64,000 nucleotides of DNA from Escherichia coli (GTDB lineage Bacteria; Pseudomonadota; Gammaproteobacteria; Enterobacterales; Enterobacteriaceae), in assembly GCF_002854065.1 (NCBI RefSeq), contig NZ_CP024147.1; one strand, written 5' to 3'. Position 1 is the stretch's first letter. Every line of letters starts with the position of its first letter. Below, piece by piece: positions 11,014-16,468 of this stretch. The position numbers and the translations under genes were made by a program. The notes below the pieces were generated by a model. The model was not told the DNA's origin. It made no database searches and saw nothing but the letters and a program-made list of their open reading frames with translations.

Positions 11014-11193
11014 TTAGTCGGATTTACGAATCATGAGACTTATAATGGAAGGAATGAGACTAAGCGGCCAGGTTAAACCTGTAATTATTGCAGCAAACAA
11101 CCGATATGTTACTTTTTCTTCCGAGAAGATAAATATTAAAGTCGATGTCACAACCAGACCTATCAGGTAAGCTAACAGTAATTTATTGATCAC
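11014..11193 (-). CDS. Hypothetical small membrane protein (59 aa, two predicted helices)
   Basis: GTG start 5 nt after GGGAGG; translation MINKLLLAYLIGLVVTSTLIFIFSEEKVTYRLFAAIITGLTWPLSLIPSIISLMIRKSD; absent from the ORF track (below 60 aa). Confidence 0.45.
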   Translation of the reverse strand: MINKLLLAYLIGLVVTSTLIFIFSEEKVTYRLFAAIITGLTWPLSLIPSIISLMIRKSD

Positions 11194-11259
11194 TTTTACC
11201 TCCCCTTTCGATTTCTCTTTGAGCGGTCCTTTTAATCCAGGACCGCCTCATTATGAAAA

Positions 11260-12870
11260 CTATTTAATTCCCTCATCATTGATAAGGTTGGACATCTCTT
11301 TCAACATGAGAGTCATTGAAGCTTTCGACCAATTTAGCGGAATGATAGGGCTTGGCGCTTCATGCAAAGTTCCCGACTTGTGGATATAGTTATAGCTTTC
11401 GGGAAGTGCCATTTCTGGTACGCTCCTGCCATTTGCACCAATCATATTCTCGCCTGTTATTTGGGCCAATGATCTATTCATAAATTGTACTGAGTCATTC
11501 AAATACTCTTCTTTTCTTGATTCTTTATAAACAATTGCTGCTGATTTTGCATACCATGAGTCAAAAAACCATTCTGCTTCTGTTGATGGAATGAAGCTCT
11601 TTTCTCTTTTTGCATGCGAATTTTGATCGGTATCGGTTTTAATATCATTGAACCAAAAATTTGCCGACTGATAATTATCCTTCTCGTATCTTTTTATACC
11701 ATACGGACCTGCTAGTTTTTTAACTATTTTTAGAACTTGCTCTTTTCTTCTGGTGTTTATCTTTGAAAGATTTGCAGGATAAATAACATTAAGTAAAGCC
11801 GCATCGGCTTCTCTGTAATGTTTATCTTTTTCCAGATAACCTGGGGATTCTCCCCCTAAATCAAGCTGTAACGTTATTCTTTCATAACCTTTATCTATGA
11901 GGTGGTTCAACCTCGTTGTTGAAAGAGGTTCATCCAGTTCATTGGCTTTAGCTTCGCGTAGTAAATCAGAGACAAAAACAGATTCTTTCTTCGAGAGTAA
12001 GTTCGACAAACGTTCCAGTCCAGAGGTCACCAGTGCAACGGAAGATGTGTTTAATCGGGCATCTTCCTCCCACGCTCCGGAATCTTCCATAACATAGAAA
12101 TTGGCTTTATCCAGATAAGCAATCAGCAACGCAACCGATTTTAATCGGTCACCTTTTTGCCAATCTTCAGCGTTAATAGTACCAGTATTGATTGCTTGTA
12201 TAAGGAGATCAAGATAAAGACCTAACGCATCATTTTGTTTATGGTTCCACAGCTGCGGCTTGCCTTCTTCCTGCACATCTGCCATCACGGGGGAGTTGCT
12301 GTCAAATCGGATATGCACAGCATTCATTTGCCCGGGAATACCATCCAGTCGTTTTGGGTTGCTAATGATGTCCTGCATCCGCTTAATCTGGTCGGGCGTA
12401 GACATATAATCCCACAGGGTGAGCAGAACCTTTTTTGCGGCTACACTATTTCCCTGGTCTGATACTAATGCCATATAGCCCCATAAACTATCCCTCAGCC
12501 AGACAGCATCATAGTGGGTTTCTGCCGCTGTTTTGTCATCTTCGAAAGTAGAAGCAAGAATAAACGTTACCCAGGGTTTCTCCGTCAACGTTAACTTTCG
12601 TGTGTTTTCTGTTAATGTTAGCAATCCTTGAATTTCGTCTTTGGTATAGTGGCTCTTTATTTCATTTTGTAATTTGGCTGAGTGAATCAGAAGACGATAA
12701 TTAGGATACTTATCTGGATTTAACGATAAATAACTTTTATCTGTTGCTGCCCCCGTGGAATTAAGAATGTTAAATACAGATTCACTCGTCACTTCTGCCC
12801 CTGTCGCCTGGCATGTGCCGCACGAAAATATACCAGCGAGCAGAAGAGTTAATGCAGATTTCCCTTTCAT
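11260..12870 (-). CDS. Secreted or lipoprotein glycoside hydrolase family 15-like protein
   Basis: 536-aa ORF from MKGKSALTLLLAGIFSCGTCQA (signal peptide with Cys); GH15-type motifs (AVWLRDS; GAWEEDARLNTSSVALV). The track's N-terminal extension to 12939 reads into IS2 and is rejected. Confidence 0.6.
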   Translation of the reverse strand: MKGKSALTLLLAGIFSCGTCQATGAEVTSESVFNILNSTGAATDKSYLSLNPDKYPNYRLLIHSAKLQNEIKSHYTKDEIQGLLTLTENTRKLTLTEKPWVTFILASTFEDDKTAAETHYDAVWLRDSLWGYMALVSDQGNSVAAKKVLLTLWDYMSTPDQIKRMQDIISNPKRLDGIPGQMNAVHIRFDSNSPVMADVQEEGKPQLWNHKQNDALGLYLDLLIQAINTGTINAEDWQKGDRLKSVALLIAYLDKANFYVMEDSGAWEEDARLNTSSVALVTSGLERLSNLLSKKESVFVSDLLREAKANELDEPLSTTRLNHLIDKGYERITLQLDLGGESPGYLEKDKHYREADAALLNVIYPANLSKINTRRKEQVLKIVKKLAGPYGIKRYEKDNYQSANFWFNDIKTDTDQNSHAKREKSFIPSTEAEWFFDSWYAKSAAIVYKESRKEEYLNDSVQFMNRSLAQITGENMIGANGRSVPEMALPESYNYIHKSGTLHEAPSPIIPLNWSKASMTLMLKEMSNLINDEGIK

Positions 12871-13002
12871 AAAATATTCCATCAATCGTTTGTTAAAAGC
12901 GTAGATAACCATAGACTGGCCCCCTGAATCTCCAGACAACCAATATCACTTAAATAAGTGATAGTCTTAATACTAGTTTTTAGACTAGTCATTGGAGAAC
13001 AG

Positions 13003-13368
13003 ATGATTGATGTCTTAGGGCCGGAGAAACGCAGACGGCGTACCACACAGGAAAAGATCGCAATTGTTCAGCAGAGCTTTGAACCGGGGATGACGGTCTC
13101 CCTCGTTGCCCGGCAACATGGTGTAGCAGCCAGCCAGTTATTTCTCTGGCGTAAGCAATACCAGGAAGGAAGTCTTACTGCTGTCGCCGCCGGAGAACAG
13201 GTTGTTCCTGCCTCTGAACTTGCTGCCGCCATGAAGCAGATTAAAGAACTCCAGCGCCTGCTCGGCAAGAAAACGATGGAAAATGAACTCCTCAAAGAAG
13301 CCGTTGAATATGGACGGGCAAAAAAGTGGATAGCGCACGCGCCCTTATTGCCCGGGGATGGGGAGTAA
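13003..13368 (+). CDS. insC: IS2 protein InsC (OrfA)
   Basis: 121-aa [21 protein letters not shown]..., RBS GGAG upstream; the track ORF starts 15 codons earlier inside the terminal repeat. Confidence 0.95.
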
Positions 13369-14231
13369 GCTTAGTCAGCCGTTGTCTCCGGGTGTCGCGT
13401 GCGCAGTTGCACGTCATTCTCAGACGAACCGATGACTGGATGGATGGCCGCCGCAGTCGTCACACTGATGATACGGATGTGCTTCTCCGTATACACCATG
13501 TTATCGGAGAGCTGCCCACGTATGGTTATCGTCGGGTATGGGCGCTGCTTCGCAGACAGGCAGAACTTGATGGTATGCCTGCGATCAATGCCAAACGTGT
13601 TTACCGGATCATGCGCCAGAATGCGCTGTTGCTTGAGCGAAAACCTGCTGTACCGCCATCGAAACGGGCACATACAGGCAGAGTGGCCGTGAAAGAAAGC
13701 AATCAGCGATGGTGCTCTGACGGGTTCGAGTTCTGCTGTGATAACGGAGAGAGACTGCGTGTCACGTTCGCGCTGGACTGCTGTGATCGTGAGGCACTGC
13801 ACTGGGCGGTCACTACCGGCGGCTTCAACAGTGAAACAGTACAGGACGTCATGCTGGGAGCGGTGGAACGCCGCTTCGGCAACGATCTTCCGTCGTCTCC
13901 AGTGGAGTGGCTGACGGATAATGGTTCATGCTACCGGGCTAATGAAACACGCCAGTTCGCCCGGATGTTGGGACTTGAACCGAAGAACACGGCGGTGCGG
14001 AGTCCGGAGAGTAACGGAATAGCAGAGAGCTTCGTGAAAACGATAAAGCGTGACTACATCAGTATCATGCCCAAACCAGACGGGTTAACGGCAGCAAAGA
14101 ACCTTGCAGAGGCGTTCGAGCATTATAACGAATGGCATCCGCATAGTGCGCTGGGTTATCGCTCGCCACGGGAATATCTGCGGCAGCGGGCTTGTAATGG
14201 GTTAAGTGATAACAGATGTCTGGAAATATAG
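13326..14231 (+). CDS. insD: IS2 transposase InsD (OrfB), IS3 family
   Basis: 301-aa ORF overlapping insC in the -1 frame; DDE-type integrase core. Confidence 0.95.
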
Positions 14232-14439
14232 GGGCAAATCCAAACCACTTATTTAACAACTTGAAAATAAGGTATTTTACCTGGGTTGTTATAAAAGGAT
14301 TGCATTGCGTAAACGCTTTTTATTTACAAAATAATGGGGAAGTGTTACTGCGATTGCGAAAAGTCTGAACCGATTGAATTAAGATAATATAGAAAATCAG
14401 ATACAACAAAAATGGCAGGTTGATGAGGTGAAGATAAAT

Positions 14440-14513
14440 TGGAGCGGGCGAAGGGAATCGAACCCTCGTATAGAGCTTGGGAAGCTCTCGTTCTACCATT
14501 GAACTACGCCCGC
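14440..14513 (-). tRNA. glyU: tRNA-Gly (anticodon CCC)
   Basis: Minus-strand 74-nt sequence GCGGGCGTAGTTCAATGGTAGAACGAGAGCTTCCCAAGCTCTATACGAGGGTTCGATTCCCTTCGCCCGCTCCA; cloverleaf with CCC anticodon and encoded CCA. Confidence 0.97.
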
Positions 14514-14591
14514 TTCGAGATGCGTAAGGCATTATAAACCTTACGCTCTCCTTAGCAAGTGCCGCGCTGCTGACTGCTGATTAATTCGCCA

Positions 14592-15347
14592 TCAGCATTT
14601 TGGCTTGCTGCCCTGCGGCGGCAAGTAACGTAGCGGATCAATTGCCGTTGCACGGTAACGAATCTGGAAATGCAGGCGAACAGATGCCGCATCCGTGCTC
14701 CCCATGGTGGCGATTTTTTGCCCAGCCTTCACGCTTTGCCCATTATTTACCAGCATCGTGTCATTATGGGCGTAAGCCGTAATGTAATCTTCACTGTGTT
14801 TAATCATGATGAGATTACCGTAGCCACGCAGCTGGTTGCCCACATACACCACCTTTCCTGCACCCGCGGCGTAAATAGGTGTACCCCGTGGAGCAGAGAT
14901 ATCAATCCCTTTATTGCCGCCATCTGCTGTCGAATACGGCATGATAACTTTCCCTGTCGTTGGCCATAACCAACAACGTTGCCCTACTGGCGGCCAGGAA
15001 GATTTCGGTACCGCTGATGACGGTGTAACCGATGCGGTTTTGGTCGTTGATTTGGCGGTTGATTTACGTGTACTACTGCTACTTTTCGCCCCACCCAGTT
15101 TTAGTTTCTGACCAACTTCAATGGTGTAAGGGGGGGAAATGCCGTTCAGTCGCGCCAGCTCTTTTACGCTGGTTCCCGTGGTGCGCGAAATACGATATAG
15201 CGTATCCCCCCGTTTCACGGTGTAAACGGAGCCGGAATACGTTCCTGTATCGGATGATTTGCTACCCGAACAGCCCGCCAAAAGCAGTCCAACCGATAAC
15301 AACATCACGATACCCAGAGATTTTTTATTCAGGCGTCCCGCACTCAA
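14592..15347 (-). CDS. ygeR: LysM/M23-peptidase-family lipoprotein
   Basis: Lipoprotein signal (LLLAGCSG), LysM region, C-terminal M23 fold; TTG start at 15347 preceded by GAGGAAAG (the track extends to another TTG at 15371). Confidence 0.85.
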   Translation of the reverse strand: MSAGRLNKKSLGIVMLLSVGLLLAGCSGSKSSDTGTYSGSVYTVKRGDTLYRISRTTGTSVKELARLNGISPPYTIEVGQKLKLGGAKSSSSTRKSTAKSTTKTASVTPSSAVPKSSWPPVGQRCWLWPTTGKVIMPYSTADGGNKGIDISAPRGTPIYAAGAGKVVYVGNQLRGYGNLIMIKHSEDYITAYAHNDTMLVNNGQSVKAGQKIATMGSTDAASVRLHFQIRYRATAIDPLRYLPPQGSKPKC

Positions 15348-15489
15348 AATCTTTCCTCGCTTAAAAAACAAGACGCCATATCATAGCAGCCAGCCTCTTG
15401 ATACCCAATCTCTTGCTTCTGGAAAAACGCGGTAGGTGATGCTGCCAACTTACTGATTTAGTGTATGATGGTGTTTTTGAGGTGCTCCA

Positions 15490-15765
15490 GTGGCTTCTGT
15501 TTCTATCAGCTGTCCCTCCTGTTCAGCTACTGACGGGGTGGTGCGTAACGGCAAAAGCACTGCCGGACATCAGCGCTATCTCTGCTCTCACTGCCGTAAA
15601 ACATGGCAACTGCAGTTCACTTACACCGCTTCTCAACCCGGTACGCACCAGAAAATCATTGATATGGCCATGAATGGCGTTGGATGCCGGGCAACCGCCC
15701 GCATTATGGGCGTTGGCCTCAACACGATTTTCCGCCATTTAAAAAACTCAGGCCGCAGTCGGTAA
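15490..15765 (+). CDS. insA: IS1 protein InsA
   Basis: Protein identical to the other two InsA copies; GTG start. Confidence 0.95.
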
Positions 15766-16187
15766 CCTCGCGCATACAGCCGGGCAGTGACGTCATCGTC
15801 TGCGCGGAAATGGACGAACAGTGGGGATACGTCGGGGCTAAATCGCGCCAGCGCTGGCTGTTTTACGCGTATGACAGGCTCCGGAAGACGGTTGTTGCGC
15901 ACGTATTCGGTGAACGCACTATGGCGACGCTGGGGCGTCTTATGAGCCTGCTGTCACCCTTTGACGTGGTGATATGGATGACGGATGGCTGGCCGCTGTA
16001 TGAATCCCGCCTGAAGGGAAAGCTGCACGTAATCAGCAAGCGATATACGCAGCGAATTGAGCGGCATAACCTGAATCTGAGGCAGCACCTGGCACGGCTG
16101 GGACGGAAGTCGCTGTCGTTCTCAAAATCGGTGGAGCTGCATGACAAAGTCATCGGGCATTATCTGAACATAAAACACTATCAATAA
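15684..16187 (+). CDS. insB: IS1 transposase InsB
   Basis: Protein identical to the other two InsB copies. Confidence 0.95.
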
Positions 16188-16468
16188 GTTGGAGTCATTA
16201 CCAACGCGGTAATAGAGAAAGAGGTTAATTTCATTTGGCAAAGGGAAGTATCATCAGCAAAATTTTCGCTGTAGAGGTATCGAATTTCCTGACTTTTTTA
16301 CCCTATTTCCCATCCTGATGCGTAATAATCCCAATTTATCACATTGATTTTATCGCCACTCATATTGATACGTATCACTGTCCCTATTCAGAGTCCTGTT
16401 TCGTATCATATCTGTGTTTTTTTAACGTCATCACACTTCCTTCCTCCCCTAACGCTTATCGTCGTTTC

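Follow-up and report, generated by a model that had tools for sequence, protein, structure and literature searches.

We analyzed a 64,000-nucleotide stretch of Escherichia coli DNA (contig NZ_CP024147.1 of RefSeq assembly GCF_002854065.1; hereafter the window) in which a complete copy of the insertion sequence (IS) IS2 is found 41 bp before the start codon of ygeQ, a gene at the edge of the type III secretion island ETT2 that encodes a protein resembling enzymes of glycoside hydrolase family 15 (GH15). The most likely outcome of this insertion is silencing or strong reduction of ygeQ transcription, a reading to which we give a probability of about 0.6. The features that bear on it are, in order of position:

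11260-12870, minus strand: ygeQ, full-length, for a 536-aa exported GH15-like (glucoamylase-like) protein
12871-12911, minus strand: 41-bp remnant of the native ygeQ 5′ region, its last 5 bp (12907-12911, AACCA) being one copy of the target duplication
12912-14242, plus strand: complete IS2, with its left inverted repeat (IRL) beside ygeQ and its transposase transcribed away from ygeQ (K-12 IS2H match, open reading frames, terminal repeats)
14243-14247, no strand: second AACCA copy of the target duplication (alignment)
14248-14439, minus strand: the 192 bp of the native glyU-ygeQ spacer that IS2 has displaced from ygeQ, with 31% guanine plus cytosine (GC)
14440-14513, minus strand: glyU, tRNA-Gly(CCC), on the same strand as ygeQ and the integration site of the island (ARAGORN; RefSeq annotation in relatives)
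14531-14558, minus strand: promoter-like site of glyU, TTGCTA-16-TATAAT, the only strong sigma-70 match upstream of ygeQ on that strand

The inserted element has the features expected of IS2: it is 1331 bp long with imperfect inverted repeats at its ends, contains two transposase frames that overlap, and has duplicated 5 bp of its target. It has the same nucleotide as K-12 IS2H at 1330 of 1331 positions, the two frames (12958-13368 and 13326-14231) are open, and AACCA is present as a direct repeat on its two sides (12907-12911 and 14243-14247). Removing IS2 and one AACCA copy in silico left a glyU-ygeQ spacer of 233 bp that aligns without gaps to E. coli strains AB66 and VE-V10-F and is identical at 233 of 233 positions to the spacer of E. 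coli L006, which encodes an identical YgeQ. Because removal restores an uninterrupted spacer, the insertion is a simple transposition event. An earlier note on this DNA had placed IS2 41 bp upstream of the ATG and had proposed a comparison with strains lacking it; the gap is exactly 41 bp (12871-12911), and the comparison with L006 returned the restored spacer of the window.

The insertion upstream of ygeQ is probably strain-specific and recent. A 200-bp left-junction probe for the boundary between IS2 and ygeQ found no record with at least 80% coverage in 5426 complete E. coli genomes, and the allele is therefore specific to this strain or lineage. A recent date fits because the open reading frame is identical to a protein on 45 contigs, IS2 is intact, and the duplication is perfect.

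The open reading frame itself is undamaged. The frame called mechanically runs from 12939 to 11260 on the minus strand (559 aa) and begins with a TTG within IS2, and the ATG at 12870 gives the 536 aa that the earlier note had reported, with N-terminus MKGKSALTLLLAGIFSCGTCQATG. This ATG is the start in the RefSeq annotation of other E. coli and of K-12, and the E. albertii orthologue starts at the equivalent Met. Since the ATG sits at 12870, the interval 11260-12911 consists of the ygeQ frame and the 41-bp upstream remnant, and the frame 11260-12870 is full-length ygeQ, the outermost ETT2 gene, adjoining the tRNA gene glyU. The exact 536-aa sequence also occurs in other E. coli (the 45 contigs mentioned above), where RefSeq names it 'glycoside hydrolase family 15 protein'. 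Sequence matching ygeQ was found in 3988 of the 5426 complete genomes (~73%), with at least 80% of the gene covered in 2982, and all of these copies are chromosomal.

We searched for promoters with a strict consensus scan of 12700-14600 and with a weight matrix whose scores were compared with those of 1000 shuffled sequences. The strict scan recognized no promoter in that interval besides that of glyU, which has a weight-matrix score of 12.3 (reached by 3 of 1000 shuffles). No sigma-70-like promoter was recognizable in the restored 233-bp spacer, where the best score (7.5) was reached by 933 of 1000 shuffles. The 41-bp remnant likewise contains no promoter-like site above the shuffles, its sole 'sites' having a −10 hexamer that ends at the ATG. 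Forty-one bp is too short for a −35/−10 pair and a leader with a ribosome-binding site, and the source of ygeQ transcription lies upstream of the insertion point. All DNA more than 41 bp upstream of the ygeQ ATG has been shifted 1336 bp further off by IS2. The earlier note's claim that the native promoter had been displaced thus holds for the upstream DNA and for the inadequacy of the 41 bp, and not for the promoter itself, which was not located.

The sequence of events that we propose is as follows. A complete IS2 entered the spacer by transposition, at a point 41 bp before the ygeQ start codon, and made the 5-bp duplication, a step that can be read from the window. The insertion moved the remaining 192 bp of the spacer, along with the glyU promoter, away by 1336 bp and left ygeQ facing the left end of IS2, where neither IRL nor the 41-bp remnant contains a recognizable promoter. 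Transcription of ygeQ, together with that of the downstream GhoT/OrtT-like gene, would then be lost or strongly reduced.

Several points weigh against this reading. The gene may not be expressed under laboratory conditions even without the insertion, or it may depend on read-through from glyU, in either of which cases the insertion would change little that is measurable. The native start site was located neither by the spacer scans nor in the start-site table of Shigella flexneri M90T, obtained by differential RNA sequencing (dRNA-seq; PMC7132871, supplementary file 3). Because no spacer promoter was recognized and no sense start is listed for M90T, the 'native promoter' of ygeQ is a presumed one. 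A consensus scan would miss weak AT-rich promoters and those that depend on an activator, also at the junction with IS2. Finally, transcription entering IS2 from the glyU side would meet no intrinsic terminator-like site in 12700-14600, either IS2 strand included.

The evidence from M90T needs a closer description. Its tRNA-Gly is at 214139-214212, and its ygeQ is truncated (214446-214997) and differs in sequence from that of the window. Consecutive entries in the table are 213733(+), 214238(−), and 215127(+); there is no sense-strand start site in the glyU-ygeQ spacer and only an antisense one, 26 nt past the 3′ end of glyU. The missing sense start is weak evidence because the start of glyU, too, is missing from that table. 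The ROSE supplement also has no start-site entry for ygeQ.

Two further observations concern the spacer. The antisense primary start site of M90T (214238) corresponds to about 14414 (+) in the window, between IS2 and glyU, where the sequence is conserved, so that an RNA antisense to glyU may be made from this position in the present strain as well. In K-12 (L004 8830-8984), 78 bp immediately downstream of glyU are deleted relative to window positions 14362-14439 and to other E. coli; the deletion removes a promoter-like TTGTTG-17-TATCTT, which is among the better-scoring sites of the spacer while scoring at chance level.

The likelihood order of the possible outcomes is silencing or strong reduction first, residual read-through second, and expression driven by IS2 third. 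In the second of these, transcription that starts upstream, by read-through from glyU or at a weak promoter in the spacer, traverses all of IS2 in the direction antisense to the transposase and supplies ygeQ at a reduced level. We regard this as possible but on the unlikely side. glyU lies on the ygeQ strand, and no terminator hairpin with a U-run follows it or is present on either IS2 strand; because no such hairpin is found 3′ of glyU, read-through is a possible native source of ygeQ mRNA. A 1.3-kb untranslated antisense RNA is, however, a typical substrate for Rho-dependent termination, and Rho-dependent polarity of IS2 insertions is named in the title of older work cited in PMC12095673. 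In addition, an IS3-family reporter study detected expression of a neighboring reporter only where a promoter lay no more than 150 bp from the IS end (PMC12095673).

The third outcome, in which an outward or hybrid promoter at the IS2 end drives ygeQ and expression is kept or raised, is improbable. IS2 hybrid promoters have been documented for the neighboring genes ampC, acrEF, and neoR (PMC9330008), and an AT-rich target site leads to frequent −10-like hexamers. The outward −35 that forms hybrid promoters in IS3-family elements, IS2 included, is nevertheless in the right end, the right inverted repeat (IRR; PMC9330008), whereas it is IRL that faces ygeQ here. When the last 150 bp of IS2 at IRL were read outward together with the 41 bp, the best candidate sites scored 3.7-6.9, against 10-12 for the glyU promoter; the best was matched by 756 of 1000 shuffles, and the strict scan returned nothing. 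Silencing is likelier than IS2-driven expression because IRL faces the gene, the outward −35 is in IRR, and the junction has no recognizable promoter. For the same reasons the expectation of the earlier note that ygeQ would be expressed by read-out from the IS2 end was not supported.

Silencing would extend beyond ygeQ to the next gene on the same strand:

11194-11259, minus strand: spacer of 66 bp between ygeQ and the GhoT/OrtT-like gene, in which a stable hairpin (−19.5 kcal/mol) lacks a U-run
11014-11193, minus strand: gene for a 59-aa small membrane protein of the GhoT/OrtT family, with a GTG start and a GGAGG ribosome-binding site

This gene is probably co-transcribed with ygeQ and, being so, would share its fate. 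The identical 59-aa product of L006 has a PF10753 hit on record, RefSeq uses the name 'GhoT/OrtT family toxin', the NCBIfam scan gave no match for the 59-aa frame, and no GhoS-like antitoxin gene is evident beside it. The pair of ygeQ and the GhoT/OrtT-like gene is conserved in ETT2 of E. coli and E. albertii, and the GhoT/OrtT-like gene is absent beside the ygeQ homologues of Yersinia, Commensalibacter, Bifidobacterium, and a Bdellovibrio-like metagenome-assembled genome (MAG). In Escherichia, YgeQ may work together with the membrane peptide.

The protein affected by the insertion is most likely an active inverting exo-glycosidase of the periplasm or outer membrane, as judged from its fold and conserved motifs. 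The identification as GH15 is already known and not new: the product was called glucoamylase-like by Pallen 2003, as cited in Chaudhuri et al. 2010 (PMC2808357). Pfam PF00723 matches YgeQ weakly (independent E-value, i-E = 3.3e-4; 20.1 bits; model positions 35-309 of 427), and no NCBIfam model matches it. In 32 diverse homologues, the same profile reached E <= 0.001 in 19 and E <= 0.1 in 29, with a best E of 2.7e-7. The homologues (257 at E <= 0.001) come from E. albertii, Yersinia enterocolitica, Commensalibacter, Elusimicrobiota, Planctomycetota, Synergistaceae, Clostridiales, Bifidobacterium, and Bdellovibrionales. An AlphaFold model built on the family alignment is confident (predicted local distance difference test, pLDDT, 89.1; predicted template modeling score, pTM, 0.90), and the catalytic domain is predicted to be an (alpha/alpha)6 barrel, closest to solved GH15 structures. 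The GH15 likeness claimed in the earlier note is therefore upheld by profile, fold, and a conserved Glu (E268), the similarity being remote by sequence. Some E. coli genomes contain a second paralogue of the YgeQ family (proteins P0032 and P0034), 472-549 aa long and with 48-50% identity to YgeQ.

The candidate catalytic residues are two glutamates. The general acid E268 (in D-S-G-A-W-E-E) is aligned with Glu185 of the alpha subunit of phosphorylase kinase (PhK), where Glu185 and Glu371 form the catalytic pair (PMC10978961), and it is invariant in the 32 homologues. It is also aligned with W-E-E of Aspergillus niger glucoamylase (Glu179); this comparison of the family profile with the glucoamylase sequence by hhalign gave a probability of 4.75% with the first three motifs in register and serves as a lead only. 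The motif R-Y-x-x-D-x-Y-x-x-x-N-x-W-F of YgeQ matches R-Y-P-E-D-T-Y-Y-N-G-N-P-W-F of glucoamylase. E491 (in L-P-E-S-Y-N), also invariant in the 32 homologues, resembles S-E-Q-Y-D (Glu400 of A. niger, the position of Glu371 in PhK alpha), and the spacing between R394 and E491 (97 residues) is close to that between R305 and E400 in glucoamylase (95 residues). A local alignment of the C-terminal parts, tried as support for the general base, was spurious and was discarded. About 70 positions are invariant across phyla in the family, a degree of conservation that points to a working enzyme and not to a domain in decay.

Two points count against YgeQ as an enzyme. E491 is a candidate general base by motif inspection and spacing, and it lies outside the Pfam-aligned part, which ends at 309 of 427. 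Moreover, the closest relatives, the domains of PhK alpha and beta, have no detectable hydrolase activity (PMC10978961). YgeQ could accordingly be a non-catalytic carbohydrate-binding protein, a pseudoenzyme like those domains. Compared with PDB sequences, both YgeQ alone and a profile (to E = 10) matched only PhK alpha and beta and no canonical GH15 enzyme, the family profile matching PhK alpha at E = 1.8e-7; with maltose, isomaltose, or glycogen as substrate, no glucoamylase activity of the PhK domains could be detected (PMC10978961). On the other side, the invariant positions include W-E-E, P-E-S-Y-N, W-x-R-D, and R-Y-x-x-D-x-Y-x-x-x-N-x-W-F, which correspond to motifs of the glucoamylase active site; this pattern fits purifying selection acting on an active site, and we think a pseudoenzyme unlikely.

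The proposed location of the enzyme depends on its N-terminus, in which we identified a signal peptide by inspection and pattern match:

12802-12870, minus strand: Sec-type signal peptide (codons 1-23), in which Cys17 may belong to a lipobox or signal peptidase I may cleave after Ala23

The n- and h-regions are clear, with a basic n-region (K2, K4) and a hydrophobic core of 11 residues, which bears out the export signal noted earlier. I-F-S-C17 fits a relaxed lipobox in which Phe at −2 is unusual, and C-Q-A23 is an alternative site for signal peptidase I. In the same alignment column as I-F-S-C17, E. albertii YgeQ has V-L-A-C, and distant homologues have textbook lipoboxes (e.g., L-V-G-C-A-S and L-S-S-C-A-S). 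Among 111 full-length homologues, the N-terminus is hydrophobic in 80 and a lipobox-like motif is present in 30; members from Bifidobacterium and Clostridiales have no signal. In the AlphaFold model, residues 4-18 form a helix of low confidence, and the chain after them is disordered. YgeQ is thus probably exported by the Sec pathway as a lipoprotein.

This would set YgeQ apart from type III effectors, which have no cleavable Sec signal. That YgeQ is an ETT2 effector and not a Sec-exported enzyme has been tentatively proposed in the literature, and its place beside eivF is kept in both E. coli and E. albertii; we consider the proposal very improbable. The N-terminus looks like a signal of the classical Sec or lipoprotein type. 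Homologues with 40-60% identity in Yersinia, Commensalibacter, Bifidobacterium, Elusimicrobiota, and Bdellovibrionales, several of which carry clear lipoboxes, have no genes for type III secretion near them. The signal together with homologues in such loci argues against the published label. The gene neighborhoods of the homologues in Yersinia, Bifidobacterium, Commensalibacter, and a 0.84-Mb MAG revealed no conserved partner genes and no hint of the substrate.

The remaining island genes in the window lie further along the same strand:

9919-10668, minus strand: eivF, InvF-like ETT2 regulator of the AraC family (NCBIfam InvF, E = 1.2e-53; RefSeq name EivF)
8975-9922, minus strand: sctC/eivG, secretin gene cut short by IS1, of which the 5′ part with 315 of ~567 codons remains (TIGR02516 match, N-terminal part only)

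ETT2 is a low-GC, horizontally acquired island adjoining glyU (PMC11068852; PMC7058095). The window has a low-GC block beside glyU (36-41%, with ygeQ at 40.6%, vs. 50.1% for the window), with SPI-1-like type III secretion genes (eivF and the sctC fragment) adjacent and shared synteny. Where the island is more complete (E. coli L006, whose secretin is a full-length 567 aa, and E. albertii), the gene order is actS, glyU, ygeQ, the GhoT/OrtT-like frame, eivF, and sctC, and YgeQ of E. albertii, with the same synteny, has 76% protein identity. The earlier note had described ygeQ as island cargo next to the secretion regulator. The first part is correct, ygeQ being in low-GC ETT2 next to glyU; as to the second, both genes are at the same island edge, but eivF is not the direct neighbor, since the 59-aa frame (11014-11193) lies between them.

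ETT2 is here down to four genes, namely the secretin fragment, eivF, the 59-aa frame, and ygeQ. Positions 1-7420 of the window are collinear with K-12 from lysR to yqeG (98.5% identity), and two identical direct IS1 copies (7421-8188 and 8212-8979, 23 bp apart) replace yqeH through mid-sctC/eivG. A third identical IS1 (15435-16202), inverted and with a 9-bp target duplication, is located between the divergent genes actS and xdhA, whose promoters it may affect; together with the copy at 8212-8979 it encloses what is left of the island. We considered and rejected an inversion between these oppositely oriented IS1 copies, as gene order and orientation match K-12. The IS2 insertion would be one more step in the erosion by insertion sequences of an island already reduced by IS1, a process already described as the 'mutational attrition' of ETT2 in the title of Ren et al. 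2004, cited in PMC2808357.

IS2 has also inserted independently elsewhere in the locus, as IS2H of K-12 (ygeP/ygeO junction), in sctC of AB66, in ygeQ of Res13, and between the eivF remnant and the GhoT/OrtT-like frame of VE-V10-F. With the window included, IS2 occupies five different positions in a locus of ~6 kb across lineages, which suggests that the AT-rich island edge is a recurrent IS2 target. Other E. coli with an identical YgeQ (L005, L007, and L009-L011) have a phage-type integrase and phage-like genes directly upstream of ygeQ, at the expected place of actS, an arrangement that suggests further integrative elements in the glyU region.

The literature or standard annotation already covers the gene ygeQ, its likeness to glucoamylase, its position at one end of ETT2, and the erosion that insertion sequences have caused in this island, and the IS2 allele is ordinary decay of a largely destroyed island. 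The exported and widespread YgeQ family is the closest bacterial relative of the glucoamylase-like domains of PhK. More tentatively, this family (~500-550 aa, in many phyla, with both putative catalytic glutamates invariant) might be a free-living active bacterial counterpart of the PhK alpha/beta domain, with a substrate that may differ from maltose, isomaltose, and glycogen. If so, the substrate of YgeQ could point to the ligand or activity of the PhK domain.

Compared with known systems, ygeQ of the window is the same gene, in the same place between glyU and eivF, as ygeQ/EC042_3075 of other E. coli. In K-12 it is cut to 264 aa ('putative lipoprotein YgeQ') and followed by the ygeP pseudogene and IS2H, whereas the frame in the window is intact; residues 1-264 differ from K-12 YgeQ at four positions in our own comparison. 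The insertion resembles the IS2-ampC hybrid promoter in that a complete IS2 with a 5-bp target duplication lies just upstream of a gene. It differs from the activating IS2 cases, in which IRR supplies an outward −35, in that IRL faces ygeQ and no hybrid promoter is recognizable. With the GH15 enzymes (glucoamylase, glucodextranase, isomaltose glucohydrolase 5z3a, and dextran dextrinase) YgeQ shares a sequence identity of only 12-16%. Bacterial GH15 enzymes have a large beta-sandwich N-domain, in place of which YgeQ has a short N-terminal region of ~90 residues. The D1 domains of PhK alpha and beta, in turn, are N-terminal modules of cytosolic regulatory subunits of 1000-1200 residues, whereas YgeQ is a stand-alone bacterial protein that is predicted to be exported.

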